DNA from: Uliginosibacterium sp.
GTDB taxonomy: Bacteria > Pseudomonadota > Gammaproteobacteria > Burkholderiales > Rhodocyclaceae
Direction: 5' to 3'
NCBI GenBank assembly: GCA_016718265.1
Contig: JADKDZ010000007.1
Coordinates: forward strand, 197,622 to 261,621
Length of the DNA stretch: 64,000 nucleotides
Below are positions 8,434-33,000 of this stretch, in pieces (the first letter of the stretch is position 1; each line of letters opens with the position of its first letter). The notes beneath the pieces were generated by a model. It was given only the letters and a program-made list of their open reading frames with translations, had not been told where the DNA came from and did no database searches. The translations under genes were made by a program, and so were the position numbers.

Positions 8434-8483
8434 GCATTCAGACACTTATCATTCGTTTTCCGCTCTCTGGAGACAGCGCAACC

Positions 8484-10895
8484 ATGAAATACGGTTACTT
8501 TGATGACGCCAAGCGCGAGTACGTCATCACCAATCCGAAAACTCCGGTCAAATGGATCAACTATGTCGGCGGACTCACCTTTGGTGGCTTCATCGACCAG
8601 ACCGGTGGTTCGCTGATCTGCAAGGGCGATCCGGCACTGAACCGCATCGTCAAATACCTGCCGCAAGCGCCAGCATCCGACTTCAAGGGTGAGACGCTCT
8701 ACCTGCGCTTCAAACAGGCCGACGGCAGCTACAAGGTCTTCTCGCCTTTCTTCGTCCCGACGCTGGACAAGTACGACCTCTACGAGTGTCACGTCGGGTT
8801 GGGCTACTCGACCTACATCTCCGAGTTCTATGGCATTCGCACCGAAGTCACGGTTTTCGTGCCTTTTGGCGAAACCCGCGTCATCCGTGACATCAAGGTC
8901 ACGAACAAGACCGGCAAGCCGATCGCAATCGACGCAATCCCGGTGGTCGAATACACCCACTTCGATGCGCTCAAGCAATTCACGAACGCCGACTGGGTTC
9001 CCCAGACCATGCAGAGCCGTGCAGTTCGCGAAGGCGAACTGATGGCGCTGACCCAGTACGCATTCATGAATCGCGACACGGCGGTGAACTACTTCACATC
9101 CAACCTGCCCGTCTCTTCGTTCGAGTCCGACCGTAAGCGTTTCCTTGGCGACAACGAGTATGGCTCGTGGCGCGCACCGCTCGCGCTCGACAACGCTGAG
9201 CTCTCTAACTTCGAAGCAAACCGTGGCGACAACATCGCGGCCCTGCTCCACCACCTCGGCGAGCTTCAGCCTGGCGAAACGCGCCGCCTGATCACTCAGC
9301 TTGCGCAGGCCAAGACCGTTGAGACCGACTCAGTGGCAATAGCCAGGTTCCGGGATCCCGCCAACGTTGATAGTGCCCTCGCCGAACTGGCAAAATTCTG
9401 GGACGACTATCTCGCCGCACTGCAGGTCAAGACACCGGACGCGAACTTCAACAGCATGATCAACGTCCACAACCCGCGCCAGTGCAACACGACCAAGAAC
9501 TGGTCGCGCGATCTCTCGCTCTACCAACTGGGCTTTGGTGGACGCGGCATTGGCTTCCGAGACAGCTCTCAAGACTCGATGGGGATGGTCGCCAACGATC
9601 CGGAAGGTGCGCATGGTCTGATCACCAAACTGCTTCACGTGCAGAACCGCGATGGTTCGGCGATGCATCAGTTTTTCCCTTCCACAATGGTAGCCACCGC
9701 CGGCGACTCGCATGAATTCCCAGATCGCCCGCATTTCTATGGCGACGACCACCTCTGGATCATTCTGGCCGTCAATGCCTATCTCAAGGAAACCGGCAAC
9801 CTGGCGTTTCTGCAAGAGCAGATTCCGTTCTACGACAAAAGCGAAGATGGCAAAGCTATCGAGGCGGGCACCGTATTCGAGCATCTCAAGCGCGCCGTCG
9901 AATTCACCTGGAGCCACCGCGGCAAGCACGGTCTGCCGCTGCTCGGGTTTGCTGACTGGAACGACACCGTCAATCTTCGAACTGGCGCGGAATCGAACTT
10001 CATTGCGCCGCAGTTCGGCCAAGCACTGAAGGAAATGATCGATCTCGCGGAGACGGTCGGTGACCTCGAACTGGTCAAGCGTTATCAGGCCTATTACGCC
10101 GAAATGAAAGAAGCGGTCAACCGTGAAACCTGGGACGGTGAGTGGTATGTACGCTACTTCGATCACGACGGTACTCCGCTCGGCTCCCGCAAGAACACTC
10201 ACGGCAAGATTTACATCAATTCACAGAGCTGGAACGTGCTCTGCGGCTTCGCCGAAGGCGAACGCGCGCAGGTAGCACTGGACTCCGTCAACAAGCACTT
10301 GAACACTACCAACGGCCTCAAGCTCTCGGCGCCCGGCTTTAACGGCTACGACCGCAACCTCGGCGGGGTCTCCACCTATCCGCCCGGGGCCAAGGAGAAC
10401 GGGGGCATCTTCCTGCACACCAACCCCTGGGTGATGATTGCGGAAACCGTAGTCGGCAATGGTGATCGTGCTTACCAGTACTACAACCAGATCAATCCAG
10501 CGTTCAAGAACGACTGCATCGACGAGTTCGAGGCCGAACCCTACTGCTACCCGCAGAATATGCTTGGCGACGAACACCCACAATTTGGTCTTGGCCGTAA
10601 CAGTTGGCTGTCGGGCACATCATCCTGGACCTACCAGGCGGCGACACGCTTCATTCTCGGGATTCAGCCGACCTACAAGGGGCTGCAAATCAACCCGTGC
10701 ATTCCGAAAGACTGGGATGGCTTTTCGGCGACCCGAAAGTATCGCGGCGCAAGCTATGAAATAGTGGTGAATAATGCTGCGCATGTCAGCAAAGGGGTCA
10801 AATCAATTAGCGTCGACGGCAAGCTGATTGACGGTAACGTACTACCTTTGTTCACGAGTGGACACCACAGCGTTGAAGTAATCATGGGCGAATAA
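8484..10895 (+). CDS. GH94 glycoside phosphorylase, copy 2 (diverged paralog)
   Basis: 803 aa from the ATG at 8484 (MKYGYFDDAKREYVITNPKTPVKWINYVGG). Motifs GFADWNDTVNL and GGIFLHTNPW. Collinear with copy 1 but clearly diverged. Confidence 0.9.
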   Translation: MKYGYFDDAKREYVITNPKTPVKWINYVGGLTFGGFIDQTGGSLICKGDPALNRIVKYLPQAPASDFKGETLYLRFKQADGSYKVFSPFFVPTLDKYDLYECHVGLGYSTYISEFYGIRTEVTVFVPFGETRVIRDIKVTNKTGKPIAIDAIPVVEYTHFDALKQFTNADWVPQTMQSRAVREGELMALTQYAFMNRDTAVNYFTSNLPVSSFESDRKRFLGDNEYGSWRAPLALDNAELSNFEANRGDNIAALLHHLGELQPGETRRLITQLAQAKTVETDSVAIARFRDPANVDSALAELAKFWDDYLAALQVKTPDANFNSMINVHNPRQCNTTKNWSRDLSLYQLGFGGRGIGFRDSSQDSMGMVANDPEGAHGLITKLLHVQNRDGSAMHQFFPSTMVATAGDSHEFPDRPHFYGDDHLWIILAVNAYLKETGNLAFLQEQIPFYDKSEDGKAIEAGTVFEHLKRAVEFTWSHRGKHGLPLLGFADWNDTVNLRTGAESNFIAPQFGQALKEMIDLAETVGDLELVKRYQAYYAEMKEAVNRETWDGEWYVRYFDHDGTPLGSRKNTHGKIYINSQSWNVLCGFAEGERAQVALDSVNKHLNTTNGLKLSAPGFNGYDRNLGGVSTYPPGAKENGGIFLHTNPWVMIAETVVGNGDRAYQYYNQINPAFKNDCIDEFEAEPYCYPQNMLGDEHPQFGLGRNSWLSGTSSWTYQAATRFILGIQPTYKGLQINPCIPKDWDGFSATRKYRGASYEIVVNNAAHVSKGVKSISVDGKLIDGNVLPLFTSGHHSVEVIMGE

Positions 10896-10930
10896 AAATC
10901 GAATTTATCGACACAGATTTCAGATAGCAA

Positions 10931-10968
10931 AACGGGAATTCAGTCTCAATCTGAATTCCCGTTTTTTT
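10931..10968 (+). terminator. Rho-independent terminator after GH94 copy 2
   Basis: AACGGGAATTCAG / CTGAATTCCCGTT 13-bp stem followed by a T-run. Confidence 0.85.
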
Positions 10969-11013
10969 GCTCATCAAAGGCGCAGAAAGTCACGCGATGA
11001 CGAGGCGTTTGAG

Positions 11014-11044
11014 CAAAAAAAACGCAGCTCTCTCAGGAGCTGCG
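11014..11044 (-). terminator. Minus-strand rho-independent terminator with no annotated gene upstream
   Basis: CGCAGCTC / GAGCTGCG stem preceded on the plus strand by A9, which is a U-run on the minus strand. No convincing ORF between it and osmC. Confidence 0.5.
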
Positions 11045-11329
11045 CCAAGTCCACACCAAAGGAGGAGGGTGGAGGAGACAATCTACGATTACACCCGGCC
11101 AAAACACTGGCAGACGGCGAATCAACGATTTCATTATGCGCAATCGCCTTGTGCGTTGCAAGATTTATTCGTCGGAATTCGACTCAATCTTTCTATCTAA
11201 AAATCAATGTGACTTATGGGCAGTCCCGTCAACATAAAAGGGCAAAAGCACCCTGCCACGCACCGTAACACCAGCGAAATACGCTGAACAAGCTAGAATT
11301 CCCATCCCGACAGACGAGACAAATAGATC

Positions 11330-11752
11330 ATGGAATGCACAATCAAATGGGCCGGAAACGCTCAGTTTATTGCGGAGACAGGAAGCGGGCACGCAGTCGT
11401 CATGGAAGGCGCTGCAGAACTCGGCGGGAATAACCATGCGCCTCGACCAATGGAAATGATCCTCGCGGGCGCGGGGGGATGTACTGCATACGACGTTGTA
11501 CTAATACTTAAGCGTGGCCGGCACGCGGTTACGGCCTGCGAGGTCAAAATGCACGCAGAGCGCGCTGACACCGACCCGAAGGTATTTACGAAGATCCACT
11601 ATCACTACATCGTATCGGGCCAGCGCCTCAAAGCCGAAGTTGTCGAAAGGGCCATCAAGTTATCGGCAGACAAATACTGTTCAGCTTCTTTCATGCTGGG
11701 AAAAACAGCAGAGATCACACACGATTTCGAGATCCAGGATTCGGACTCCTGA
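11330..11752 (+). CDS. OsmC/Ohr-family protein
   Basis: 140 aa with the two conserved Cys contexts of OsmC-like proteins (GGCTAYD, KYCSAS). Confidence 0.85.
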   Translation: MECTIKWAGNAQFIAETGSGHAVVMEGAAELGGNNHAPRPMEMILAGAGGCTAYDVVLILKRGRHAVTACEVKMHAERADTDPKVFTKIHYHYIVSGQRLKAEVVERAIKLSADKYCSASFMLGKTAEITHDFEIQDSDS

Positions 11753-11759
11753 AGACGCG

Positions 11760-12383
11760 TCAAACCCGGGCTGCAACAGTCGTCATGACTTTCGACGCAG
11801 CCTTCATTGCGACGCGCACCGGCCACGGCAGCTCTGCCGCGCCCAGATTGCGCGCCAGGCTTGCGTGCACGGACTCGTCCTGCTTCATCTGATCAAGGAT
11901 CGCACGCGAGCGCAAATCCTGCGGCAGCAGGCGATCCAAGTGCCCTTGGAGATGCGCTTCGACCTGAGTTTCCGTCTCGGCCAGAAACCCCAGATTCCAG
12001 CGGTCGCCCAAGACACCGGCTGCCACGCCGACAGCCAGAGCCCCGCCGTACCAGAGCGGGTTCAATAGACTCGTCCGCCCTCCGACTTCCTCGATACGCT
12101 GCAAGGTCCACGCCAGATGCTCGACTTCTTCATCGGCAGCAGACTGCAAGGACTCACGTAATCCCGCATCTCGCGCCGTAATGGCTTGCCCTTGGTACAA
12201 GGCTTGCGCGCAAATTTCACCAACGTGATTGACGCGCATCAGCGCCGCAATGTCACCTCGCTGTTGATCATCGAGCTCACATTCTGGCTGCGCGCTGCCC
12301 GGGACCGGTCTGGTACTGGATGGTTTTACCGCCAAGGTCTGCAGGGCCTTGTCGAAATGCTCGATCAGCCCATCAAGCATCAT
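11760..12383 (-). CDS. coq7: Demethoxyubiquinone hydroxylase (Coq7, di-iron carboxylate)
   Basis: About 207 aa from MMLDGL. Repeated E...EXXH di-iron motifs ([15 protein letters not shown]). The longer ORF from 12482 would overlap rppH. Confidence 0.85.
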
Positions 12384-12927
12384 CGGCTCCGGACACTGCA
12401 GGAACGGGGGCTTGCTTGCCCAGCACGTAGCTCTTGGGCCTCGCGCGAATGTCGCCCTGAAACAGGATATCGGCCAGCTCATTCAAAGCGGCCTTATACA
12501 CGCCACGCTTGAACTCGATCACCGATTCAAGCGGGACCCAGAAATCCGTCCAGCGCCAGGCATCGAATTCAGGGTGCCCGCTCGCCCGCAGGCTGATATC
12601 GGTATCGCGCCCAATCAGACGCAGCAGATACCAGATCTGCTTCTGTCCGCGATAGGTACTACGCCATTCGCGCTTGACCCAATGCTTCGGCACGTCATAA
12701 CGCAACCATTCACGCGTGCGGGTAATCACCTGCACATGCTCCGGACGCAGACCGACTTCTTCATAGAGTTCCCGGAACATCGCCTGCTCGGGAGATTCCC
12801 CGTGCTTGATGCCGCCCTGCGGAAACTGCCAGGAATGTTCGCGTATGCGCTTGCCCCAAAACACCTCGTTGCGTGAATTCACGATGACGATGCCGACATT
12901 AGGGCGATAACCATCCCTGTCGAGCAT
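12373..12927 (-). CDS. rppH: RNA pyrophosphohydrolase (Nudix)
   Basis: Start at [14 protein letters not shown]. Nudix box [23 protein letters not shown]. Divergent from proS. Confidence 0.9.
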
Positions 12928-13073
12928 GAAAACCACCTGAATACCATTAAGTTGAAAGGATTCTTTCACAGTTCCGGACTTAAGGAAACATCCCCTGATC
13001 CAATCGGGACGTTCAAACCCTGGCTCAGGTACAATCGCGGGTTATCCCGGACTTTGATCACAGAATATCGACC

Positions 13074-14780
13074 ATGCGTGCCAGCCAGTTCTTCATCTCC
13101 ACCCTCAAAGAAGCCCCCAACGACGCCGAGATTCTCAGCCACAAACTGATGATGCGCGCAGGCCTGATCAAGAAGCTCGGCGCCGGCATCTACAACTACA
13201 TGCCGATGGGGCTGCGGGTGATTCGCAAGGTCGAGAACATCATCCGCGACGAGATGAACCGCGCTGGCGCGATTGAACTCCTGATGCCGGTCGTACAGCC
13301 AGCCGAGCTATGGCAGGAGACCGGTCGCTTTGAAAAGATGGGTCCCGAGCTGCTGCGCTTCAAGGATCGGCACGAGCGCGATTTCGTCATCCAGCCCACC
13401 TCGGAAGAAGTCATCACCGATATCGTCCGTCAGGAGATCCGCAGTTATCGCCAGCTGCCGAAAAACCTCTACCAGATCCAGACCAAGTTCCGGGACGAGC
13501 GTCGCCCCCGTTTCGGCGTCATGCGCGGCCGCGAATTCACGATGAAGGATGCCTACTCCTTCCACGTCGATTTTGACGATCTGAAGCGCGAGTACCAGAA
13601 CATGTTCTCGACCTACGCGAACATCTTTACCCGCCTGGGCCTGCAGTTCCGCGCCGTGGCGGCGGATACCGGCGCCATTGGTGGCACGGGTTCGCATGAA
13701 TTCCATGTCATCGCCGACACCGGTGAAGACGCCCTGGCCTACTGCCCGGATTCCGACTTTGCCGCCAACGTCGAGCTCGCCGAAGCCGTGCTGCCGAGTG
13801 CACCGCGTCCCGCGCCGCAAGAGGCCCTCACCAAAATCCATACCCCCGCGATCAAGACGATTGAGCAGCTCGCGGGCTTCCTCAAGATCGACATCCAACG
13901 CACGGTCAAGGCCGTGGTCGTTGAAGGTGAAGACGGGGTCCCGGTTCTGCTGATGCTGCGCGGCGATCACGAAATGAACGAGATCAAGGCCGGCAAGCTC
14001 CCCGGCGTATTCTCACCCCTGCGCTTTGCCACGCCGGCAGCCATCCGCGAGGCCTTCGGTGCCGAGCCGGGTTCGCTTGGACCGATCGGCTTCAAGGGCC
14101 GTATTTTCATGGACCGTGCCGTATCGGTGATGAGTGACTTCGTCATTGGTGCCAACGAAAGCGACTACCACTTCACCGGCGCCAATATCGGCCGCGATTT
14201 TCCGGAGTCCGAGCTCGTCGACATCCGCAACGTCGTTGAAGGTGATCCTTCGCCCGACGGCAAGGGGAAGATTGCAATCTGTCGCGGTATTGAAGTCGGC
14301 CACATCTTCCAGCTGCGTACACGCTACTCCGCGGCCATGGGCTGCAAGTTCATCGGCGAAGACGGTAAAGAACAGGTCATGGAAATGGGCTGTTACGGCA
14401 TCGGAGTCACCCGCATCGTCGCTGCGGCCATCGAGCAGAACAATGACGCCCGCGGCATCATCTGGCCCGATGCAATTGCCCCCTTCCAGCTCGTCATCGT
14501 CGCGCTGGGCTGGGGCAAATCCGAAGCCGTGCGCGAAACCGCGCTGGCACTCTACGCGGAGCTGTCGGCAGCTGGTATCGAAGTCATTCTCGACGACCGC
14601 GACGAGCGCCCCGGTGTGATGCTCGCAGACTGGGAGCTCATTGGCATTCCGCATCGCGTTGTTGTCGGCGACCGTGGTCTCAAGGAAGGCGTTGCCGAGT
14701 ATCAGGGCCGGCGTGACGAGGCCGCCACGAAGATTGCAGTTGGCGAGATTACGGCTGCGCTCAAGTCAAAGCTGTTGTAA
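13074..14780 (+). CDS. proS: Proline--tRNA ligase (bacterial type with insertion/editing domain)
   Basis: 568 aa, [15 protein letters not shown]..., class II motifs and a C-terminal anticodon-binding domain. Confidence 0.97.
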
Positions 14781-22914: not shown

Positions 22915-23523
22915 ATGAGCATCTACGCCCTCAAACCCAAGTTCCAGGCCCTGCTGCGCCCGCTAGTGCGCGGCTTGTTCCAGGCCGGCGTCACGGCGAA
23001 CCAGGTCACGCTCGCCGCCTGCATCGTCTCGGTGGCGCTCGGCCTGTGGCTGGCGGCGGTGCCACGCCCGGCGCTGTTTCTGCTGATCCCGCTGTGGATG
23101 TTTATCCGCATGGCCTTCAACGCCATCGACGGCATGCTGGCGCGTGAATTCGGCCAGCAATCCCGTCTCGGCGCCTATCTGAACGAGCTGACCGACGTGG
23201 TCTCCGACGCCTGCCTTTACCTGCCCTTTGCTTTCCTGCTGCACTTTCCAGTGCTGTGGGTGGGCGTGTTCATCGTGCTCTCGGTCGTCGTCGAGATGAC
23301 CGGCGTGATCGGCCTCATGGTGGGCGCTTCGCGCCGCTACGACGGCCCGTTCGGCAAGAGCGACCGCGCCTTCGCGATCGGCGCACTGGCGCTGGCGGTC
23401 GGGCTCGGCCTGCCGGTGCAGGGCTGGCAGGCGCTGGTGTTCCCGGCGATGAGCCTGCTCTGCGCCTGGACCATCGTACGCCGCGTGCGCCAGGGTTTGC
23501 GCGAGTCGGCTGCAAAGCCCTGA
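22915..23523 (+). CDS. CDP-alcohol phosphatidyltransferase family protein
   Basis: 202-aa polytopic protein with signature region NAIDGMLAREFGQQSRLGAYLNELTDVVSD (DG-x2-AR-x8-G ... D-x3-D). Starts 10 nt after the tex stop. Confidence 0.85.
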   Translation: MSIYALKPKFQALLRPLVRGLFQAGVTANQVTLAACIVSVALGLWLAAVPRPALFLLIPLWMFIRMAFNAIDGMLAREFGQQSRLGAYLNELTDVVSDACLYLPFAFLLHFPVLWVGVFIVLSVVVEMTGVIGLMVGASRRYDGPFGKSDRAFAIGALALAVGLGLPVQGWQALVFPAMSLLCAWTIVRRVRQGLRESAAKP

Positions 23524-23650
23524 CACAGAACAGCTTTCAGCCCGTCGTTCATAAACGCTTACAAGTCTGTCGGCAAACATTTCGACATATCGAGCAACTT
23601 CGATATATTATCCGTGACACCAGCGTGTGCTGTGTCTCCCCGGAGGATCC

Positions 23651-25405
23651 ATGAGTCGTCAGCCTATCGAAAGTCGCTTCACCGCCTCGGATGGCGAATC
23701 CCTGTTCTACCGCCACTGGCCGGCGCAGACCGCCAAGCCACGCGGCGTGATCGTGATGGCCCATCGTGGCCACGAGCATTCGGGCCGCATGGCGCATGTG
23801 GTCGATGAACTCGATCTGCCCGACTTCGCGTTTTTCGCCTGGGATGCACGCGGTAATGGCCAGACTGGCGGGCCGCGCGGTTTCTCGCCGAGCTTCGGTC
23901 GCTCGATCCGCGATGTGGATGAATTCGTCCGCTTTGCCGCCGCCCAGTACGACCTGCCGCTGAGCGAGGTGGGCGTGATCGCCCAGAGCGTCGGCGCGGT
24001 CACCGTCAGCGCCTGGGTGCATGACTACGCGCCGCAGATCCGCTGCATGACGCTGGCTTCGCCGGCCTTCAAGGTCAAGCTCTACGTGCCGTTCGCCGTG
24101 CCCGGCCTCACGCTGATGCACAAGCTCTTCGGCAACTTCTTCGTCAATTCCTACGTCAAGGCCCACTACCTGACGCACGACCCGGCCCGCATCGCGTCCT
24201 TCAATGCAGACCCGCTGATCGCCCGGCCGATCTCGGTCAACATCCTGCTCGCCCTGTATGAGACCGCCGAGCGCGTGGTGAAGGATGCCGGCGCGATCCA
24301 TGTACCGACGCAATTGCTGATCTCGGGGGCCGACTGGGTGGTGCACCATGGCCCGCAGCACGCGTTCTTCGAGCGGCTTGGCAGCACCGTGAAGGAAAAG
24401 CATGTGCTCGACGGCTTCTATCACGACACCCTGGGCGAGAAGGATCGCAAGCTCGCCCTCGACAAGCTGCGTGCCTTCATCCTCGCGCGCTTCGCGACTG
24501 CCCCGGTGAAGCCCGAACTGCTCGATGCGCACCAGCGCGGCTACACCTTCAAGGAATTCCAGCAACTCAGCCAGCCCCTGCCCGCCCTGAGCCCCAAGCA
24601 GTGGGGATTCGCCCTCACCCGCTTGTCGATGCGCACCTTGGGCCGCCTCTCCTCCGGCGTGCGGCTGGGCTTTGCCACCGGTTTTGATTCCGGCAGCACG
24701 CTCGACTACGTGTATCGCAACGAAGCGCGCGGCCGCGGCCTCCTCGGCAAGCTCTTCGACCGCAATTACCTCGACGCGATCGGCTGGCGCGGCATCCGCC
24801 AGCGCAAGCTCCACGTCGAGCAATTGCTGCAGGACGCCATCGCCCGGCTGCGCCAAGCACAGCGCCCGGTGCATGTGCTCGACATCGCCGCCGGGCACGG
24901 CCGCTACGTTCTGGAGGGCATCGCCAATCTGGCCCAGAAGCCGGATTCGATCCTGCTGCGCGACTTCAGCGAACTGAATGTGGAAAAGGGCAGCAAGCTG
25001 ATCGCCGAGAAAGGTCTGCAGAGTATTGCCCGCTTCGTGCAGGGCGACGCCTTCAACCGCGCCTCGCTCGCCAGCGTCCAGCCCAAGCCCACGGTGGGTG
25101 TGGTTTCCGGCCTCTACGAGCTGTTCCCGGACAACGTCATGCTGCGCGAGTCTTTGGCAGGGCTCGCGGACGCGGTCGAACCCGGCGGCTACCTGATCTA
25201 CACCGGCCAGCCCTGGCATCCGCAGCTCGAATTCATCGCCCGCGTGCTCTCCAGCCACCGCGACGGCAAGCCCTGGATCATGCGCCGCCGCGTGCAGGCC
25301 GAGATGGACCAGCTCGTCGAAGCGGCCGGTTTCACCAAGCTGCAGACGCTGGCCGATGAGTGGGGGATTTTCACGGTCTCGATTGCGAAGCGAAACGAGG
25401 TTTGA
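23651..25405 (+). CDS. Bifunctional alpha/beta-hydrolase / class I SAM-dependent methyltransferase
   Basis: N-terminal half is lysophospholipase-like (HRGHEHSGR, nucleophile elbow AQSVGA). C-terminal half has methyltransferase motif I VLDIAAGHGRYVLE. Start taken at MSRQPIESRF. Confidence 0.8.
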   Translation: MSRQPIESRFTASDGESLFYRHWPAQTAKPRGVIVMAHRGHEHSGRMAHVVDELDLPDFAFFAWDARGNGQTGGPRGFSPSFGRSIRDVDEFVRFAAAQYDLPLSEVGVIAQSVGAVTVSAWVHDYAPQIRCMTLASPAFKVKLYVPFAVPGLTLMHKLFGNFFVNSYVKAHYLTHDPARIASFNADPLIARPISVNILLALYETAERVVKDAGAIHVPTQLLISGADWVVHHGPQHAFFERLGSTVKEKHVLDGFYHDTLGEKDRKLALDKLRAFILARFATAPVKPELLDAHQRGYTFKEFQQLSQPLPALSPKQWGFALTRLSMRTLGRLSSGVRLGFATGFDSGSTLDYVYRNEARGRGLLGKLFDRNYLDAIGWRGIRQRKLHVEQLLQDAIARLRQAQRPVHVLDIAAGHGRYVLEGIANLAQKPDSILLRDFSELNVEKGSKLIAEKGLQSIARFVQGDAFNRASLASVQPKPTVGVVSGLYELFPDNVMLRESLAGLADAVEPGGYLIYTGQPWHPQLEFIARVLSSHRDGKPWIMRRRVQAEMDQLVEAAGFTKLQTLADEWGIFTVSIAKRNEV

Positions 25406-25440
25406 GGAGCGGTGCCGGGTAAACACCTGAGACATCGGAA

Positions 25441-25524
25441 CCCCGTCATTCCCGCGCAGGCGGGAATCCAGCGGCGTTCGCAACGCTGTGCCAGACACTG
25501 GGTCCCCGCCTCGCGGGGACGACG
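25441..25524. repeat. REP-type double-hairpin element, intergenic copy
   Basis: CCCCGTCATTCCCGCGCAGGCGGGAATCCAGCG, then a spacer, then CACTGGGTCCCCGCCTCGCGGGGACGACGG. Each half is a short perfect hairpin (TTCCCGC/GCGGGAA and TCCCCGC/GCGGGGA). Confidence 0.75.
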
Positions 25525-25624
25525 GGAGCCCGGATTCCGGCTTACCGCCTACTTCCAGGCTACCCGTTGCGCTTCTTCGCTGAAGGTCGTCGCCCTCCTG
25601 AAAAATGATTGCGAGAACCTATCC

Positions 25625-27082
25625 ATGACAAATAGTGCCGTCTCCGTCAAACGTCCCTGGCCCTGGGCCCTGCTCTGGGGCGCCCTGCTGGGCACGCTCT
25701 TCTTCACCAGCTATGGCGCGGCCAACCACTTCACCGCCCAGCGCGGCGACGTGGGCAGCTATGTCTTCGGCTGGGAGCACGCGATTCCGCTGCTGCCCTG
25801 GACCATCCTGCCCTACTGGAGCATCGACCTCTTCTATGGCATTGCCCTGTTCGCAGCGCGCAGCAAGGTCGAGCTCTTCCGGCTGGTGCGGCGCCTGCTC
25901 GCTGCGCAGCTGATCTGCATCACGGGCTTCCTGCTCTGGCCGCTGCGCTTCTCCTTCACCCGACCTGCCACCGAAGGCTGGACGGGCGCCTTGTTCGATG
26001 CGCTCACCGGCTTCGATCTGCCCTACAACCAGGCGCCCTCGCTGCACATCTGCCTGCTGGTGGTGCTGTGGCGCTTCTATGCAGACCTGCTCCAGGTCCC
26101 CACACCCCGTCATTCCCGCGAAGGCGGGAATCCAGCGTCTTCCTTCCCACCAGCCGCTGAGCCACTGGGTTCCCGCCTCCGCGGGAACGACGGTCTTAAT
26201 TTGCCAACGCTCCATGCCACGCGCGAACAACCACGAACAACGCGGCACCTCTGGCTCCAGGGCCTACTTCATGTCTGGTTCACGCTGATCGCCCTCTCGG
26301 TGCTCACCACCTGGCAACACCACTTCATCGACGTCCTCTTGGGTTTCTGGGCCGGGGCGCTGTGCCTGCTGCTCGTGCCTGAGAACGAAGCGACGTGGCG
26401 CTGGCGCGGCCATGAGCCGGGCCGCCTGCGCCTGGCCCTCGCCTATCTGGGCGGCGCCTTGCTGGCTGCGGGTCTGGGCTATGCGCGCTTCCCCGCCGCC
26501 AGTGCCTGGCTGTTGTATTGGGCGGCCGCGGCCCTGGCTGGCGTCGCCACGATCTATCTGTTTGGCGAAGCCGCGCATTTCGGCAAGCAGGCGGGGCGCC
26601 TGCCCTGGCGTAGCTGGATGGTCTTCGGCCCTTACCTGATCGGCGCCCGCCTCAATGTCTGGTGGTGGACGCGCACCCTGCCGGCAGGCGCCGAAGTGCT
26701 GGAGGGTGTCTTCCTCGGCCGCCAACCCGACGCCGCCACGCTGGCCCAGCACCAGATCGATTGCGTCGTGGATCTCTGCGCCGAGCTGCCGTTACCTGCT
26801 CGCCCAAGCGCCGCCCGCAGCTTGCCTCTGCTGGATCTCCTCCCGCCCAGCCGCGCGCAGCTTGCCTCTGCAGCCCATGCCATTGAAGAAGCCCGCCAGC
26901 AAAGGCTGCGCGTATGGGTGTGTTGCGCTCTCGGATTCTCGCGTAGCGCGGCAAGCGTGGCCAGCTGGCTGGTCCAGCACCGCGGCCACAGCCCGGAGCA
27001 GGCGCTCGCCAGGATCCGGCAGGCACGCCCGCAAGTGGTGCTCAACCCGGCACTCCTCCAGACCGAGAGCTCGTCCGCATGA
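25625..27082 (+). CDS. Fusion phosphatase: PAP2 (acid phosphatase/lipid phosphatase) domain plus dual-specificity (CX5R) phosphatase domain
   Basis: PAP2 motifs PSLH and TWQHHFIDVLLG in the membrane half. The C-terminal half has the P-loop VCCALGFSRSAA. Start taken at MTNSAVSVKRPW. Confidence 0.8.
   Translation: MTNSAVSVKRPWPWALLWGALLGTLFFTSYGAANHFTAQRGDVGSYVFGWEHAIPLLPWTILPYWSIDLFYGIALFAARSKVELFRLVRRLLAAQLICITGFLLWPLRFSFTRPATEGWTGALFDALTGFDLPYNQAPSLHICLLVVLWRFYADLLQVPTPRHSREGGNPASSFPPAAEPLGSRLRGNDGLNLPTLHATREQPRTTRHLWLQGLLHVWFTLIALSVLTTWQHHFIDVLLGFWAGALCLLLVPENEATWRWRGHEPGRLRLALAYLGGALLAAGLGYARFPAASAWLLYWAAAALAGVATIYLFGEAAHFGKQAGRLPWRSWMVFGPYLIGARLNVWWWTRTLPAGAEVLEGVFLGRQPDAATLAQHQIDCVVDLCAELPLPARPSAARSLPLLDLLPPSRAQLASAAHAIEEARQQRLRVWVCCALGFSRSAASVASWLVQHRGHSPEQALARIRQARPQVVLNPALLQTESSSA
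26105..26193. repeat. REP-type double-hairpin element inserted in frame inside the PAP2/DSP phosphatase gene
   Basis: Same element as 25441-25524: CCCCGTCATTCCCGCGAAGGCGGGAATCCAGCG ... CACTGGGTTCCCGCCTCCGCGGGAACGACGG. It is translated as PRHSREGGNPASS...LGSRLRGNDG between the PAP2 PSLH and HHFID motifs. Confidence 0.75.
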
Positions 27083-27513
27083 AAGCGCAAGCCCTCGCGA
27101 CCCTCACCGCTGCTTTCCTCCACAGCACGCGGCCGATTCAAGCCTTGGGTGGCTTGCTGGCGCTGACGGCAGCCGGCGGCGGCATTCTGGCTGCCAGCCT
27201 TGGCTTCACCTGCGCCAGTGCAGCTTTCGGCCTCGCCTTCAGTCTAACGGCCGTGCTGGCCTGGTACGCGCTGCGCATCCACTTCGACGCCCAAGTCTTC
27301 GCCTGGCTGGCCGCTCAGCCTGAAAGCGAAGCCGCGCTGGCAGACTTCGATGCAGCCCTCGCCATGCTCGGCCTGCGCCAAGGCGGCGATACTCGCGATC
27401 TGGCACCGCGCGCCCGCGGCGCCCGTCGCCTGGTCACGCGGCTGGCCCAGGTCGTTCTGGGGCAGCTCATCCTCGTCCTGCTCGGAGGCGTGTTTCTGTA
27501 TGCGCATCTTTGA
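27079..27513 (+). CDS. Small membrane protein, function unknown
   Basis: 144 aa with 3 hydrophobic segments. The start overlaps the upstream stop (ATGA) and the end overlaps the next start by 14 nt, which suggests translational coupling inside the operon. Confidence 0.55.
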   Translation: MKAQALATLTAAFLHSTRPIQALGGLLALTAAGGGILAASLGFTCASAAFGLAFSLTAVLAWYALRIHFDAQVFAWLAAQPESEAALADFDAALAMLGLRQGGDTRDLAPRARGARRLVTRLAQVVLGQLILVLLGGVFLYAHL

Positions 27514-28123
27514 TCGATTCGTCGGCAGGCTGCTGATCTCGGCCGCACGCCTGCTGACCGGCGCCTATGCCAACTGGCTGGGCTGCAAGCCGGAACCCCG
27601 CCAGCGCCTGTATTTCGCCAACCATGCGAGCCACCTCGATTTCCTGCTGCTGTGGGGCATGCTGCCGCCCGCACTGCGCCACAAGACCCGGCCCGTAGCC
27701 GGCGCGGATTACTGGAACGCCTCGGCCCTGCGCCGCTACGTGATCCATCGCGTGTTTCGCGGCGTATTGGTGACGCGCGGTGGCGGCGCAGCGGGGAGCG
27801 ATCTGCTCGCCCCGCTGCGCGAGGCGCTGGCCGCAGGCGACTCGCTGATCTTCTTTCCCGAAGGCACGCGCTCGCCCGACGGCGAGATCCAGGCCTTCAA
27901 GAGCGGGCTCTACCACCTGGCACACGATTACCCGCAGGTCGAATTCGTGCCGGTGCTGATGGAAAACCTGTCGCGCGTGATGGGCAAGGGCGAGTTCCTG
28001 CCGGTGCCGCTGATCTGCGTGCTGAGCTTTGGCACACCGCTGGCATTGGCGCCTGACGAGGCCAAGCCGGCATTCCTCACCCGTGCGCGTCAGGCCCTGA
28101 TCGACCTGCTGCCCGCGCGCTGA
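27500..28123 (+). CDS. Lysophospholipid (1-acyl-sn-glycerol-3-phosphate-type) acyltransferase
   Basis: Start at MRIFDRFVG. Acyltransferase motifs NHASHLD (HX4D) and FFPEGTRS. Confidence 0.85.
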   Translation: MRIFDRFVGRLLISAARLLTGAYANWLGCKPEPRQRLYFANHASHLDFLLLWGMLPPALRHKTRPVAGADYWNASALRRYVIHRVFRGVLVTRGGGAAGSDLLAPLREALAAGDSLIFFPEGTRSPDGEIQAFKSGLYHLAHDYPQVEFVPVLMENLSRVMGKGEFLPVPLICVLSFGTPLALAPDEAKPAFLTRARQALIDLLPAR

Positions 28124-28152
28124 ACACCTCCCCGCCCCCGACGAGACTCGCC

Positions 28153-29139
28153 ATGACACTCTCCGCCGACCTGCCCCTCCAGCTCTCTGCCCGCGTCCCC
28201 GAAGCCGCCCGCGAGGCGACCCTGTGGCTCTTTCTCGGCGTCGGTGCTGTTCTCGTCTTCGCCAGCCTGGTGGGCGCGCTGCTGCGCTGGCGCCTGGGGC
28301 CCCAGAACAGCGTCGTCGCCAACCTGAATGCGCGCATCAAGGCCTGGTGGGTGATGGTGGCCGTGATCGGCCTGGCGATGCTGGGCGGCCACACCGGCGT
28401 GGTGCTGCTCTTCGGCCTGGTGTCTTTTCTCGCGCTGCGCGAGTTCATCACCCTCACCCACACCCGCCGCGGCGATCATCTCGCGCTGCTGGCCTGCTTC
28501 TTCCTCTTTCTGCCGCTGCAATACCTGTTCGTGTGGCAGAACTGGTACGGCATGTTCTCGATCTTCGTGCCGGTGTACGCCTTCCTGCTGATGCCGTTTC
28601 TCGCCTGCCTCGGCCACGACACGACAAACTTCCTCGCCCGCGCCACGCAGACGCAGTGGGGGCTGATGATCTGCGTCTATGCCATCTCGCACGTCCCGGC
28701 CCTGCTCGCCCTGCAGATCCCGGGCTTTGCGGAGCGCAACCTGCTGCTGGTGATCTTCCTGATCCTCGTCGTGCAGTCCAGCGACGTGCTGCAGTACGTG
28801 TGGGGCAAGCTCCTGGGGCGGCGCAAGATCGCGCCGAATGTGTCGCCCTCCAAGACCCTGGAAGGCTTCCTCGGGGGCGTAGCAAGCGCCACCGCACTCG
28901 GCGCAGCGATGTGGTGGATCACGCCTTTCACGCCGTTGCAGGCGGCCGGCATGGCGCTGGCGATCACGCTGATGGGCTTCGCCGGTGGCCTGGTCATGTC
29001 AGCCATCAAGCGCGACCGCGGCGTGAAGGACTGGGGCCACCTCATCGAAGGCCACGGCGGCATGCTCGACCGCCTCGACTCGGTGTGCTTCTCGGCACCG
29101 ATCTTCTTCCACCTCGTGCGCTACTTCTTTACACCCTGA
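28153..29139 (+). CDS. Phosphatidate cytidylyltransferase (CdsA family paralog)
   Basis: 328-aa polytopic protein. CdsA signature SAIKRDRGVKDWGHLIEGHGGMLDRLDS. Confidence 0.85.
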   Translation: MTLSADLPLQLSARVPEAAREATLWLFLGVGAVLVFASLVGALLRWRLGPQNSVVANLNARIKAWWVMVAVIGLAMLGGHTGVVLLFGLVSFLALREFITLTHTRRGDHLALLACFFLFLPLQYLFVWQNWYGMFSIFVPVYAFLLMPFLACLGHDTTNFLARATQTQWGLMICVYAISHVPALLALQIPGFAERNLLLVIFLILVVQSSDVLQYVWGKLLGRRKIAPNVSPSKTLEGFLGGVASATALGAAMWWITPFTPLQAAGMALAITLMGFAGGLVMSAIKRDRGVKDWGHLIEGHGGMLDRLDSVCFSAPIFFHLVRYFFTP

Positions 29140-29420
29140 GCCCCTGCCTGCACAGCCGCGCGGCACGGGCCTCTGCAGCACTGCCAGCCTGAAACCAAGG
29201 AAAACAAAGGCTCGGCGAAGCATCTACCCGAAGAACAAGGCGGCGTGCGCCTCTACAAGCATCGGCTTAGCGGCCCGGAATTCACACGGGTCGCGCCTTC
29301 CCGCCGGCTGATCGTCGGCGCAGGAAGAGACTGCCAAAACCCGAAAAAGCGGCCTATAGTGGAACCGGGCGCGAAAGCGGTCAGCCCTCGCGCTTTTTGC
29401 CATCCACTCAGGAGGAGTTT

Positions 29421-29555
29421 ATGAGCAATAAGGAACAGCACAGCAACAAGCAGTCGAAGAAAACCCCTGCCCTGACGCTGAAAGAAAAGCGCCAGCACAA
29501 AGCCGAAAAACGCCACTCCAAAACGATCCAGCAGTTGTTCCCCAGCCCGCGCTGA
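29421..29555 (+). CDS. 44-aa lysine-rich basic protein (below the ORF-track cut-off)
   Basis: GGAGGA 4 nt upstream of the ATG. Sequence MSNKEQHSNKQSKKTPALTLKEKRQHKAEKRHSKTIQQLFPSPR. A strong terminator follows at 29627-29655. Confidence 0.6.
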   Translation: MSNKEQHSNKQSKKTPALTLKEKRQHKAEKRHSKTIQQLFPSPR

Positions 29556-29626
29556 CCGCCCCGATACGCTCCCCATCGCGATTCAATTTGCGAACCGGCG
29601 CCTGACCGCGCCGACACCACGATAAG

Positions 29627-29655
29627 ACGCCCCGCTCAGCGGGGCGTTGTTTTTT
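29627..29655. terminator. Rho-independent terminator between convergent genes
   Basis: ACGCCCC GCTCAGC GGGGCGT followed by TGTTTTTT. Confidence 0.8.
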
Positions 29656-29710: not shown

Positions 29711-30838
29711 TCAACGCCGGCGTAAGGCCAGATACTGCTGCTGCAGCCCCTGCACCACCGAGTCCAGCCCGTAGTGCTTCACTACCCGCTCGCGCGCGGC
29801 CGGGCCCATGGCGGAGGCATCCTGGCTGAGTTCATCGAGCGCCGCGGCCATGGCATCCGCCTCGTGGGTGACGATTCTGCCGCAGTCGCCGACAATGTCA
29901 CGCGCGTCGCCCACGTCGGTGCTGACGACCGGCACGCCACAGCTCATGGCCTCGACCAGCACGTTGGGGAAGCCTTCGCTGCGCGAGCTGAGCGCGAGCA
30001 CGTCAAACGCCGGATACACCGCGTGCACCTCACTCAGCGGCCCCAGCAGGTAGCAGGCATTCTCCAGCCCAAGCGCTGACAACACACGCATCAACTCGGG
30101 ATTGTCGGCGTCCAGCCCCTTGCCGACGAGCACCGCACGGGCCGTCGGGCGCAGTTTCAGCAAGGCGGCAAAGGCGGCGAGGAACAGGGCGTGATTTTTT
30201 ACCGGGCTCCAGCGGGCGACCATCCCGATCACCGGAACATCGTCGGCCAGGCCCAGTTGGCCTCGCAGGCGAGCGCGTGCGTCCGCGTCGGGCGTGAACA
30301 GCCCGGTATCCACGCCGTTAGGCAGCAGCGCGGTCCGCTCGGCTGGCCAGCCGAGGTTGCGGGCGCAGTACGCGGCACTGCGTGCCGAGACGTTGAAAAT
30401 GGTCGCTACGCGGGCCAGATACAGGCCGGAAAACCGGATCACCAGGCGCGTGAACAGGCTGTGGGCGTGGGCCGCGTCAGGCGTGTCGCGCACGCTCCAG
30501 CACACCGTCGGCGCCGGCTGCAGGCGCGCGGCGGCGAACGAGGCGGCGAGGTTGCCGTGGTACATCCAGCCTTGCAGGATGTCTGGCTGGATTTCGCGCA
30601 CTGCGGCCAGAAAACGTCCGATCTCGGCCAGTGGCCAGCGGCCGGGCGTAAGGCGCAGCATCACCGGCTCAATGCCGATTGCTTGAAAGCGCGGCAGGAG
30701 ATCCTCCTGCTGGCCGAGCACGATCAGGCTCGGCTCAAACAGCTTGCGATCAAGCCGGCTGAGGAGCTTGAGCAAGGCATGCTCGGCGCCGCCGACGCCC
30801 AGCGCAGTGATCACGAAACACAGGCGGATCGGTCTCAT
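29711..30838 (-). CDS. Glycosyltransferase family 4 (GT-B)
   Basis: 375 aa. N-terminus MRPIRLCFVITALGVGGAEHALLKL and a C-terminal E-x7-E-type region (SEGFPNVLVEAMSCGVPVV). Confidence 0.85.
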   Translation of the reverse strand: MRPIRLCFVITALGVGGAEHALLKLLSRLDRKLFEPSLIVLGQQEDLLPRFQAIGIEPVMLRLTPGRWPLAEIGRFLAAVREIQPDILQGWMYHGNLAASFAAARLQPAPTVCWSVRDTPDAAHAHSLFTRLVIRFSGLYLARVATIFNVSARSAAYCARNLGWPAERTALLPNGVDTGLFTPDADARARLRGQLGLADDVPVIGMVARWSPVKNHALFLAAFAALLKLRPTARAVLVGKGLDADNPELMRVLSALGLENACYLLGPLSEVHAVYPAFDVLALSSRSEGFPNVLVEAMSCGVPVVSTDVGDARDIVGDCGRIVTHEADAMAAALDELSQDASAMGPAARERVVKHYGLDSVVQGLQQQYLALRRR

Positions 30839-31878
30839 GGCGCCGGCTCCGCATCAACACTTTCCCACACCCGCAGCCAGGCCATCTTCGCCAGCAGCAA
30901 GCCGATGAAGACCAGCAGCAACAAGCCCGCCGACGCCCCCAGTCGCCACAGAACCAGGCCCAGACCGGCCAGCGCGGCATCCAGCGCCCACAGCATCGGC
31001 ACCGAAAGTTCGACCGAATAGCCCTTGTAGAGCAGCAGATGATGCAGATGGCTGCGGTCGGCGCGCATCGGGCTGACGCCGCGCAGCATGCGCCGCACGC
31101 TCACCGTCACCATGTCCATCACCGGCAGCGCGGCGGCATACAGCAGCAGGACCGAGGGCATCGCCGGACGCGGCCCGCGCGCCAGCATCAGCGCAAACCA
31201 GCACAGCAGCAGGCCCAGCGCCAGGGCGCCGGCATCGCCGAGAAAGACCCGCGCCCGTGCCTGCCAGGGGTGGCGGGCATTGCAGGCCAGAAAACCCAGC
31301 AAAGCGGAAATCAGGCCCGCGATGAGCAGGAAGCTTGTGCCATCGCCGCCTTGCCAGGCCACCACGGCCAGCGTGAGCAAGGCGACCAGCAGATAACCGC
31401 CGGCAAGGCCATCGGCACCGTCGGCCATGTTGATCGCGTTCGTCACCGCCACGATCACCAGCAGCGACACCGGCACCGCCAGCACATCGAGCGGAATGCC
31501 CCCGGCCAGCCCCGGCACGGGAATTGACGCGAGCACGAAGCCGCTGGTGCGCAGCAGAAGCCAGGCGGCAAAGAACTGGGCAACGAGCTTCACACGCGCG
31601 GACAGCGGCCGCATGTCATCCAGGATGCCAACCGCCAGCATCAGCCCCACCGGCACAATCGCATGGCTGAGGTTGCCGCTGATACCGCGCACCTTCACCG
31701 CCAGAATGTAGGCCAACATGATCGCGATGCCACCCACCACCGGCACCGCGCCGACGTGCTGCTTGCGCGCATCCGGCTTGTCGACCAGCGCGAGCCAGGG
31801 CGCGAGCCAGGCCAGCAGCAGACAGGCAGACAGCGCCGTCAGGAAGGGAAACACCACGAAGTTGAAGGTCAGGCCCAT
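30835..31878 (-). CDS. Polyprenol-phosphate HexNAc-1-phosphate transferase (MraY/WecA family)
   Basis: 347-aa polytopic protein. Motifs DKPDARKQH and NAINMADGADGLAGG. The stop overlaps the downstream GT4 start. Confidence 0.85.
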   Translation of the reverse strand: MGLTFNFVVFPFLTALSACLLLAWLAPWLALVDKPDARKQHVGAVPVVGGIAIMLAYILAVKVRGISGNLSHAIVPVGLMLAVGILDDMRPLSARVKLVAQFFAAWLLLRTSGFVLASIPVPGLAGGIPLDVLAVPVSLLVIVAVTNAINMADGADGLAGGYLLVALLTLAVVAWQGGDGTSFLLIAGLISALLGFLACNARHPWQARARVFLGDAGALALGLLLCWFALMLARGPRPAMPSVLLLYAAALPVMDMVTVSVRRMLRGVSPMRADRSHLHHLLLYKGYSVELSVPMLWALDAALAGLGLVLWRLGASAGLLLLVFIGLLLAKMAWLRVWESVDAEPAP

Positions 31879-31884
31879 CTCGGC

Positions 31885-33000
31885 TTAATCATCCCGCAGC
31901 CCGTAGGCGCGAAAACTGTGCGCCACCACGCACGCATCGGAATATAGGGTTACAACAGTCTTTCTAGCGGATTGCCCCAAGAGCCTTGCCAGATGCGGGT
32001 CTTCAAGCACGCGCTGAATGGCCGCCGCCAGCGCCGCCGCATCGCCCGGCGGCACGAGGAAGCCGTTTTCGCCATTCACCACCAGCTCGCGCGACCCCGC
32101 CACATCCGTGCCCACCATCGGCTTGCCGCAGGCCGCGCCTTCCAGCAAGGCGCGCGGCATGCCTTCGCCCTGGGTGCTGGCCAGCACCACCACGTCGGCC
32201 GATTGCGTGAGCGCCAGCACATCGCTGCGCTGGCCGAGGAATTCTACCGCCCCTTCCGCCTGCCATTCGGCCAGTTGCGCCGCGGCGATGCATTCCGGAT
32301 TGCCGGGATCGGGCGCGCCGGCGAGCAGAAAGCGCGCATCCGGCAGCGCCCCACGCACGATGCGCGCCGCTGCCACGTATTCCGCGATGCCCTTGGAGGC
32401 CAGCAGCCGCCCCATCATCAGCACCACGCGACCGGGCACATGGTCCACTGGCGGCGCGAACAAGGCCGTATCGATACCATCCCCCGGCACCACGCGCGCA
32501 TTGGCGTGGCGCAAGACGCCGAAATCGGCCAGCGTCTTCAGATTGTCTTGATTCTGAAACAGCACCTGGCTGCCGCGCAGCGCAAAACGATACAGCGCCA
32601 GCACCACCGGCCGGATCAGTCGCGCCTTGGGCGTATCCGCCAGCATCGCGAAGCCCAGCCCGGTGATCGAATTCACCACCCGCGCCACGCCCGCCAGCCG
32701 CGCCGCAAACGAGCCATAAATCACGCACTTGATCGTGAAGTGATGCACCACGTCTGGCCGGATCTCGCGATACAGCCGCCACAGGCGCCAGATCGTCAGC
32801 AGCTCGGCGAGCGGATTGATGCCACTGCGCGACACCGCAAACGGTCGCCAGTCAAAGCCCTCGTCGCGCAGGCGCTGGGCGAACTCCCCTGGCGGACTCA
32901 GCAACACCAGCTCATGCCCGGCCGCGCGCAAGGCGCGGGCAAGCGCGCGCTTGAAGTTGAAGAGGAACCAGTCGGTGTTGGCGAAGAGGAGAATGCGCAT
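31885..33000 (-). CDS. Glycosyltransferase (GT4/GT1-like)
   Basis: 371 aa, MRILLFANTDWFLFNFKRAL..., C-terminal GEGMPRALLEGAACGKPMV. First gene of the three-gene minus-strand operon. Confidence 0.85.
   Translation of the reverse strand: MRILLFANTDWFLFNFKRALARALRAAGHELVLLSPPGEFAQRLRDEGFDWRPFAVSRSGINPLAELLTIWRLWRLYREIRPDVVHHFTIKCVIYGSFAARLAGVARVVNSITGLGFAMLADTPKARLIRPVVLALYRFALRGSQVLFQNQDNLKTLADFGVLRHANARVVPGDGIDTALFAPPVDHVPGRVVLMMGRLLASKGIAEYVAAARIVRGALPDARFLLAGAPDPGNPECIAAAQLAEWQAEGAVEFLGQRSDVLALTQSADVVVLASTQGEGMPRALLEGAACGKPMVGTDVAGSRELVVNGENGFLVPPGDAAALAAAIQRVLEDPHLARLLGQSARKTVVTLYSDACVVAHSFRAYGLRDD

Follow-up and report, generated by a model that had tools for sequence, protein, structure and literature searches.

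In E. coli K-12, the ynbA, ynbB, ynbC and ynbD genes (b1408-b1411) are adjacent and co-directional. YnbA is annotated as a CDP-alcohol phosphatidyltransferase-domain protein, YnbB as a putative CDP-diglyceride synthase, YnbC as a hydrolase/methyltransferase-domain protein and YnbD as a phosphatase-domain protein. Here, we analyze a locus of Uliginosibacterium sp. (assembly GCA_016718265.1, contig JADKDZ010000007.1) that occupies positions 22915-29139 of a 64,000-nucleotide stretch of DNA, referred to below as the window. Our analysis identifies its six genes as a long form of ynbABCD, which recurs across the proteobacteria and probably encodes a route to a minor membrane lipid.

In the searchable literature, YnbB is the sole Ynb protein that has been studied. 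This CdsA paralog synthesizes CDP-diacylglycerol in vitro, does not replace CdsA for bulk phospholipids and is not essential (PMC6362211, PMC7018664). Its over-production increases the amount of MPIase, a glycolipid for which N-acetylglucosamine-pyrophosphate-diacylglycerol (GlcNAc-PP-DAG) has been proposed as the first intermediate, and YnbB has been described as dedicated to MPIase synthesis (PMC6362211, PMC7018664, PMC11413397). In the published model, GlcNAc-PP-DAG is formed by CdsA or by YnbB itself, not by YnbA, and deletion of ynbB left the MPIase level unaltered (PMC6362211). A September 2026 preprint still names no enzyme beyond CdsA and YnbB. Regarding regulation, ynbB is reportedly cold-induced along with cdsA (PMC11413397), and the activator of the ynbA promoter is BglJ-RcsB, whose mode of action at some loci may be the relief of H-NS repression (PMC3950696). 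YnbA, YnbC and YnbD appear in the searchable literature as incidental mentions in gene lists only, and a literature search with the name and accession of the Methyltransf_20 family returned nothing. Searches that combined the enzyme names led only to a comparative-genomics table of Pseudomonas protegens published in 2026, where the same cluster is listed as a "membrane phospholipid remodelling/biogenesis module", with no product (PMC13541209). The operon type is thus already known and named, and the window adds no new kind of system.

Gene organization and orthology with ynbABCD

The ORF (open reading frame) listing of the window gives six ORFs in the region, all on the + strand and in one direction. 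With the start sites preferred here, they are:

22915-23523, + strand: CDP-alcohol transferase, ynbA-like, 202 aa
23651-25405, + strand: hydrolase-methyltransferase fusion, ynbC-like, 584 aa
25625-27082, + strand: fusion of a PAP2-like domain and a dual-specificity phosphatase (DSP), ynbD-like, 485 aa
27079-27513, + strand: small membrane protein, 144 aa
27500-28123, + strand: PlsC-like acyltransferase, 207 aa
28153-29139, + strand: CdsA paralog, ynbB-like, 328 aa

BLASTP comparisons matched window proteins to all four E. coli Ynb proteins over their full length, with 46% identity to YnbA (199 of 202 residues), 40% to YnbB (over 296 residues), 58% to YnbC (over 583 residues) and 37% to YnbD (over 459 residues); in addition, one homolog is annotated as "putative protein YnbC". 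Based on these matches, the window module is an ortholog of ynbABCD with two added genes. This identity had been missed in a preliminary description of the locus, made from the sequence alone, which left the module unnamed; the pathway sketched there is nevertheless plausible and close to the one favored below. The two systems share the domain fusions, the N...N motif of the transferase and the adjacent, co-directional arrangement of the genes. They differ in gene order, which is A-C-D-small-PlsC-B in the window and A-B-C-D in E. coli, and in the repeat-derived 51-aa loop insertion of the window ynbD-like protein, which E. coli YnbD does not have. Neither a PlsC-like gene nor a small-protein gene was found within 20 kb of E. 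coli ynbABCD, and we therefore regard the E. coli operon, which is present in 4623 of 5426 complete E. coli genomes, as a reduced form. The closest homologs were found in Uliginosibacterium and Viridibacterium, which fits a betaproteobacterial origin.

Direct reading of the sequence bears out the compact layout that the preliminary description had reported: the six genes are co-directional, the start of the small-protein gene lies on the stop of the ynbD-like gene (ATGA, 27079-27082), and the small-protein and PlsC-like genes overlap by 14 nt (27500-27513). The PlsC-like start at 27500 is consistent with the homologs. For the ynbC-like gene, the ORF listing gives a GTG at 23627 as the start; we prefer the ATG at 23651, because a GGAGGA site is located 6 nt upstream of it and because a database copy (P0121) also has 584 aa. 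Similarly, 25625 is preferred to the listed 25412 as the start of the ynbD-like gene, since the upstream part of this ORF is a repeat element and P0001 has 485 aa. The ynbA-like gene begins 9 nt past the stop of a Tex-like gene, and the 127-nt gap between the ynbA-like and ynbC-like genes holds a promoter-like match, which is a consensus match only. The Pfam domains of the window proteins (CDP-OH_P_transf; Hydrolase_4 plus Methyltransf_20; DSPc; Acyltransferase; CTP_transf_1) agree with the domains assigned earlier, PAP2 itself being below threshold.

Conservation of the module

To evaluate its conservation, one genome per species was scanned with the hydrolase-methyltransferase as the query, which gave more than 553 loci. 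Eighty of these loci, belonging to the Alpha-, Beta-, Gamma-, Delta- and Zetaproteobacteria and to the Acidobacteriota, were fetched, and their gene order was determined by tblastn with all six window proteins. The six-gene form is the majority form among the fetched loci. In most of them (Beta-, Alpha-, Gamma- and Deltaproteobacteria), the order is transferase, hydrolase-methyltransferase, PAP2-like/DSP fusion, a gap of ~500 nt, PlsC-like enzyme and CdsA, and the gap is the site of the small membrane protein. An alternative order, i.e., transferase, CdsA, PlsC-like enzyme, hydrolase-methyltransferase and PAP2-like/DSP fusion, was found in L007, L016, L021, L041 and L046. Since the same genes recur in the same order in most of the 80 loci, the arrangement is not due to chance, and the co-occurrence in other proteobacteria that had been noted in the preliminary description now rests on a gene-neighbourhood comparison. 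The hydrolase-methyltransferase is ~65% identical between classes, the six-gene form carries the same product names in the annotations of many genomes, and copies of the module are also located on megaplasmids of Shinella and Sinorhizobium.

All-against-all clustering of the flanking ORFs of the 80 loci revealed no family common beyond narrow groups of related genomes, and no inositol-phosphate synthase, sugar-nucleotide enzyme or kinase was co-conserved beside the module. Given that no flanking family is co-conserved, the module is self-contained, as had been proposed, and resides in varied genomic contexts. Predicted proteins in which the YnbA-type transferase is joined with the PlsC-like enzyme, CdsA or the hydrolase-methyltransferase were also identified (P0181/P0243, P0280, P0324 and P0383), most of which come from metagenome contigs, where some may be gene-calling artefacts. 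In five loci (L045, L053, L055, L065 and L069), from Methylococcales, Crenothrix, Thermoanaerobaculia and one alphaproteobacterial metagenome-assembled genome, the fetched flanks contain no transferase, CdsA or PlsC-like gene, and only a trio of hydrolase-methyltransferase, PAP2-like/DSP fusion and small protein is present.

Using a profile built from 20 copies of the small membrane protein, we identified a homolog directly 3′ of the YnbD-like gene in 70 of the 80 loci. Eight of the ten loci with no match are contigs that end before its position, and the protein is truly lacking only in the Casimicrobiaceae loci L026 and L043. Its invariant residues are R66, D70, F74, D91, R106, R111 and Q129, and no Pfam or PDB relative of it was found. 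The 144-aa protein, whose place in the module had been recognized before, is thus not a loose extra, given its regular position behind the YnbD-like gene.

The YnbA-type transferase

The YnbA-type protein belongs to the CDP-alcohol phosphotransferase family (PF01066, 36.8 bits; cut-off, 22). Its motif was localized as follows:

23119-23208, + strand: variant motif N69-x2-D72-G-x2-A-R-x8-G-x3-N90-E91-x2-D94-x3-D98

This motif departs from the canonical signature D-x2-DG-x2-AR-x8-G-x3-D-x3-D in its first and third Asp, which are Asn (N69 and N90); the second and fourth Asp are retained (D72 and D94). N69 and N90 occupy the positions of D68 and D89 in the aligned M. tuberculosis PgsA1, the closest solved relative (E 1.6e-8), in accordance with the two substituted positions read in the preliminary description. 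The pattern N-x2-DG-x2-AR-x8-G-x3-NE-x2-D-x3-D is invariant in 72 homologs and is also present in E. coli YnbA. Within the family (239 clusters, E <= 1e-30), the full N...N pattern occurs in 119 of the 150 best cluster representatives. Judged from these alignments, the Asp-to-Asn changes are a hallmark of the YnbA-type family.

In PgsA1, the four signature Asp residues coordinate two metal ions, with the fourth Asp proposed to serve as catalytic base (PMC6506517). The Glu beside the second Asn (E91), which is Ala in PgsA1, is invariant in the YnbA-type family; therefore, the metal site looks remodelled, not lost. Furthermore, an invariant GPFGKSDR stretch overlies, in the pairwise alignment, the FIERPER loop of PgsA1, the site of its phosphate-binding residues Arg152 and Arg155 (PMC6506517). 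This overlay gives a hint that the acceptor is anionic.

The top curated NCBIfam families for this transferase are archaetidylinositol-phosphate synthase (65.7 bits vs. a cut-off of 180) and phosphatidylinositol phosphate (PIP) synthase (47.7 vs. 170). The PgsA model gives 26.8 bits vs. a cut-off of 109, and the PssA model is also far below its cut-off. The nearest curated families of the YnbA-type transferase use phosphorylated polyols. In mycobacteria, Bacteroides and archaea, PIP or archaetidylinositol-phosphate synthase works with a PIP phosphatase; the transferase fold is the same as in the window module, and in both systems a dedicated phosphatase comes next. The same logic is followed by PgsA and phosphatidylglycerol phosphate (PGP) phosphatase, where CDP-diacylglycerol is joined to a phosphorylated alcohol and the product is then dephosphorylated. 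The window system differs from the PIP route in its transferase, with Asn for the first and third Asp, Val for the Arg of inositol-phosphate users and scores below the cut-offs, in the Cys-based DSP fold of its phosphatase, and in that no inositol-phosphate synthase is linked to it.

The YnbD-like fusion protein

The ynbD-like protein combines a membrane domain and a phosphatase domain, in which the following features were localized:

25625 to ~26674, + strand: PAP2-superfamily multi-helix membrane domain, N-terminal part of the protein
26036-26047, + strand: PSLH motif, invariant in homologs
26096-26248, + strand: in-frame 51-aa insertion, a two-hairpin repeat element, in the loop between PSLH and QHHFID
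26315-26332, + strand: QHHFID motif, invariant in homologs
26831-26839, + strand: LDL with the candidate general-acid Asp, which is invariant
26924-26947, + strand: CX5R loop CALGFSRS, invariant in homologs

A DSP is recognized by a CX5R loop with a general-acid Asp ~30 residues upstream. The C-terminal domain of the ynbD-like protein scores 44.9 bits with DSPc (PF00782; cut-off, 33.5) and has an invariant C435 and R441 and an upstream D405 (A1 positions). Among solved structures, it is most closely related to an unnamed bacterial DSP and to DUSP23. Eukaryotic PTPMT1, a PGP phosphatase, shows that a DSP-fold enzyme is able to act on a lipid head-group phosphate; the window domain is closer to DUSP23 and to the unnamed bacterial DSP than to PTPMT1, which is a weak match (E 2.7e-4), and it is anchored by its own membrane domain.

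The assignment of the membrane domain is less direct. The window protein scores 16.1 bits with PAP2 (PF01569), below the threshold of 27.2, its relatives score 11-26 bits, and PAP2, PAP2_3 and PAP2_C are all below the Pfam threshold in the window protein and in its relatives. Compared with the PAP2 motifs KxxxxxxRP, PSGH and SRxxxxxHxxxD, the protein has no Lys in the first, PSLH in place of PSGH, and HxxxD present in the third. The invariants of the domain are NQAPSLH, QHHxxD and a single Arg-Pro. In a Foldseek search with the AlphaFold model of the domain (pLDDT 85), the best PDB match was the human sphingomyelin-synthase-related protein (SMSr; 8ijq_A, E 1.4e-3, TM 0.42-0.53), followed by weak matches to G6PC1, B. 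subtilis PgpB, inositol-phosphorylceramide synthase, Aur1 and LpxE. At the fold level, the model has a helical membrane core like that of the solved enzymes of the PAP2 superfamily, and the domain can be placed in this superfamily. With the branch of sphingomyelin synthase and inositol-phosphorylceramide synthase it shares the His...His-x3-Asp motifs (PSLH and QHHFID), and the Lys of the first motif is missing in both. However, the match is modest, the YnbD domain keeps an invariant Arg-Pro, as phosphatases do, and no ceramide pathway is implied. The model suggests that the domain may transfer or cleave a phospho-head group, rather than act as a terminal-phosphate phosphatase. Of the PAP2 plus CX5R phosphatase fusion described earlier, the DSP half is upheld by Pfam, whereas the PAP2 half scores below threshold, lacks the Lys and has its best model match in SMSr.

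The core of the two-hairpin repeat that forms the insertion, CATTCCCGCGnAGGCGGGAATC, occurs three times in the window, where no copy is expected; a sister repeat copy is located at 25440-25525, between the ynbC-like and ynbD-like genes. Among 120 homologs, 118 have no insertion of any kind in the PSLH-QHHFID loop. The homolog of Uliginosibacterium sp. 31-16 (P0003) carries a different insertion of ~49 aa at the same site, and thus the loop seems tolerant of, or attractive to, insertions. The repeat insertion raised the possibility that the ynbD-like gene is a pseudogene, which we rejected: the frame is open, the catalytic motifs are intact, and the insertion lies in a loop between two helices.

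The YnbC-like, PlsC-like and CdsA-like enzymes

The ynbC-like protein is a fusion of two enzymatic halves:

~23735-24445, + strand: alpha/beta hydrolase half (PF12146, 220 bits)
~24470-25393, + strand: S-adenosylmethionine (SAM) methyltransferase half, Methyltransf_20 (PF12147, 498 bits)

In PDB, the hydrolase half matches monoacylglycerol lipases (E 7e-19). AQSVG, SGADW and FYHD are candidates for its catalytic triad, and DIAAGHG is the SAM motif of the other half. The fold and the candidate Ser/Asp/His triad are those of monoacylglycerol lipase (Rv0183 and human MGLL) and of the lysophospholipase L2 PldB; unlike these enzymes, the YnbC hydrolase is permanently fused to Methyltransf_20. A look-up of the exact sequence of the window ynbC-like protein gave no record. 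The methyltransferase half was modelled with a pLDDT of 82 and shows a class I fold, and a fold search returned an uncharacterised Bordetella protein and methyltransferases of natural-product small molecules, with nothing more specific. The model indicates only that the enzyme probably acts on a small molecule or a lipid head group.

The PlsC-like protein (PF01553, 58.6 bits) has an HX4D motif (HASHLD, 27623-27640) and an FPEGTR motif (27854-27871), and scores 42 bits vs. a cut-off of 103 with the 1-acylglycerol-3-phosphate acyltransferase model TIGR00530. The CdsA paralog scores 233 bits with PF01148 and remains well below the housekeeping CdsA model NF008635 (88.7 bits vs. a cut-off of 385). 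Its signature was localized as follows:

28999-29079, + strand: cytidylyltransferase signature SAIKRDRGVKDWGHLIEGHGGMLDRLD of the CdsA paralog

Proposed function and alternatives

On balance, we consider it probable that the six-gene form of ynbABCD serves as a self-contained pathway, dependent on CDP-diacylglycerol, to a minor membrane lipid. This function is favored by the orthology with the Ynb proteins, the conserved order with differing flanks and the intact catalytic motifs, as well as by the use of phosphorylated polyols in the families nearest to the transferase and by the ability of YnbB to make CDP-diacylglycerol while being dispensable for growth. In the proposed route, the PlsC-like enzyme would supply phosphatidate or re-acylate a lyso form. 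By homology and from the experiments in E. coli, the CdsA paralog of YnbB type would convert phosphatidate to CDP-diacylglycerol, acting as a dedicated low-flux supplier, not as a bulk enzyme. With its remodelled metal site, the YnbA-type transferase would then use CDP-diacylglycerol as the phosphatidyl donor for an anionic, probably phosphorylated acceptor. The membrane-anchored, Cys-based phosphatase of YnbD would remove a head-group phosphate at the cytoplasmic face, and its PAP2-superfamily domain, together with the small membrane protein, may hydrolyze the product or hand on the phospho-head group. Soluble YnbC could deacylate and methylate this product, or else a by-product. The last steps would fall to the linked trio of YnbC, YnbD and the small protein.

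Several observations weigh against this route. The positive-inside count over 30 homologs gave no settled topology or sidedness for the YnbD membrane domain; PAP2-superfamily enzymes otherwise have their active site facing the periplasm. The PAP2-like domain may not be a phosphatase. Given the five trio-only loci, the steps of YnbC, YnbD and the small protein can act on lipids from other routes. Ordinary phosphatidyl transfer is not guaranteed, since the first and third Asp bind catalytic metals in the solved relatives (PMC6506517). The Arg that follows the fourth Asp in PgsA1 (R94), conserved among inositol-phosphate users (PMC6506517), is Val95 in 70 of 72 homologs. Finally, as the preliminary description had surmised, no lipid product has been assigned to the operon in the searchable literature.

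A further-reaching version of the minor-lipid route, which we put forward tentatively, is that the module builds a lipid class undescribed in bacteria. It draws on the less acidic site of the transferase, a two-faced YnbD, methylation by an esterase-methyltransferase and a possible diacylglycerol-phosphate carrier cycle. In this version, phosphatidate would be coupled to the anionic acceptor, possibly through a pyrophosphate bridge. The phosphatase of YnbD would be cytoplasmic, and a sphingomyelin-synthase-like transferase, aided by the small membrane subunit, would act on the opposite side. The carrier cycle would deliver a phospho-head group to an acceptor in the envelope.

Among the other explanations, the one that survives best, unlikely as we judge it, is an MPIase-type pathway by way of diacylglycerol pyrophosphate. 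Here, the YnbA-type enzyme would join CDP-diacylglycerol to the phosphate of a sugar-1-phosphate or another phosphate ester to give X-PP-diacylglycerol; once the head group had been used, the PAP2-like domain would turn the leftover diacylglycerol pyrophosphate into phosphatidate, to be reused via the CdsA paralog in a manner like the undecaprenyl-phosphate cycle. PAP2-superfamily enzymes are commonly lipid pyrophosphate phosphatases (PgpB- and BcrC-type), and the two Asn in place of acidic residues would reduce the repulsion of an anionic phosphate nucleophile. The rise of MPIase upon YnbB over-production and the dedicated role attributed to YnbB point in the same direction (PMC6362211, PMC7018664, PMC11413397), but the published maker of GlcNAc-PP-DAG is CdsA or YnbB, not YnbA, and MPIase did not change in the ynbB deletion (PMC6362211). 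MPIase has not been connected with YnbA, YnbC or YnbD in the searchable literature, the flanks of the 80 loci show no co-conserved sugar-nucleotide or glycosyltransferase gene, and this pathway would leave the Cys-based phosphatase and the methyltransferase with no role.

It is improbable, in our estimation, that the module is instead a lipid turnover or remodelling unit, in which YnbC, YnbD and the small protein would convert existing phospholipids by phospholipase-C-like cleavage or head-group transfer, deacylation and methylation, while PlsC, CdsA and YnbA recycle diacylglycerol or phosphatidate. The occurrence of the trio with none of the other three genes nearby in Methylococcales, Crenothrix, Thermoanaerobaculia and an alphaproteobacterial genome would be explained, as would the monoacylglycerol-lipase-like hydrolase and the likeness of the membrane domain to SMSr, whose family transfers head groups and releases diacylglycerol. 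Nevertheless, all six genes occur together in most loci, and predicted proteins join the transferase with YnbC, with the PlsC-like enzyme or with CdsA, which argues for one pathway with the transferase at its center; additionally, diacylglycerol recycling needs a kinase, and none is encoded in the module.

Equally improbable is a condition-specific back-up route to an ordinary phospholipid (phosphatidylglycerol or phosphatidylinositol, with no new head group) through PlsC, CdsA, a PGP- or PIP-synthase-like step and a phosphatase: the enzyme series parallels the housekeeping phosphatidylglycerol route, the DSP domain is weakly similar to PTPMT1, and both the cold induction of ynbB with cdsA (PMC11413397) and the silencing of the E. 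coli operon by H-NS with its switching-on by BglJ-RcsB (PMC3950696) would suit such a role, but the transferase is far under the PgsA, PIP synthase and PssA cut-offs with an invariant non-canonical motif, YnbB fails to restore phospholipid synthesis in a cdsA mutant (PMC6362211, PMC7018664), and the conserved hydrolase-methyltransferase, the sphingomyelin-synthase-like domain and the extra membrane protein are left unexplained.

Genomic surroundings in the window

The adjacent Tex gene was considered as a possible module member and rejected, as it has no link to the module in the other genomes examined. Directly downstream of the module, at 29711-33000 on the - strand, polysaccharide genes encode two GT1/GT4 glycosyltransferases and a WecA/MraY-type family 4 sugar-phosphate transferase; these glycosyltransferase genes were likewise rejected as members, as they are not beside the module in the other genomes examined. 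The following features were also localized in the window:

29331-29360: promoter-like site ahead of the 52-aa ORF
29397-29555, + strand: Lys-rich ORF of 52 aa downstream of the module, which may be a separate small gene outside it
29626-29648: strong terminator-like hairpin (10 bp, GC-rich, T run) downstream of the 52-aa ORF
11015-11080, - strand: Rfam match to "Betaproteobacteria toxic small RNA" (56 bits; gathering score, 50), which likewise fits a betaproteobacterial origin
2327-2413, + strand: Rfam match to tRNA

The G+C content is 0.52-0.58 at 1-14000 and 48000-58000, vs. 0.64-0.68 around the module, and these two low-G+C stretches may be acquired regions.

Implications for the ynb genes

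In E. coli K-12, the ynb genes belong to those membrane-lipid genes that are still uncharacterised. Our analysis adds that E. coli has a trimmed version of a proteobacteria-wide six-gene module, in which the transferase has an invariant non-canonical site, one half of the "phosphatase" is sphingomyelin-synthase-like, and a small membrane partner had been overlooked. These findings guide the search for the product, as they point to genes for co-expression, residues for mutagenesis and substrates for assays, and they open a test of the disputed link between YnbB and MPIase.

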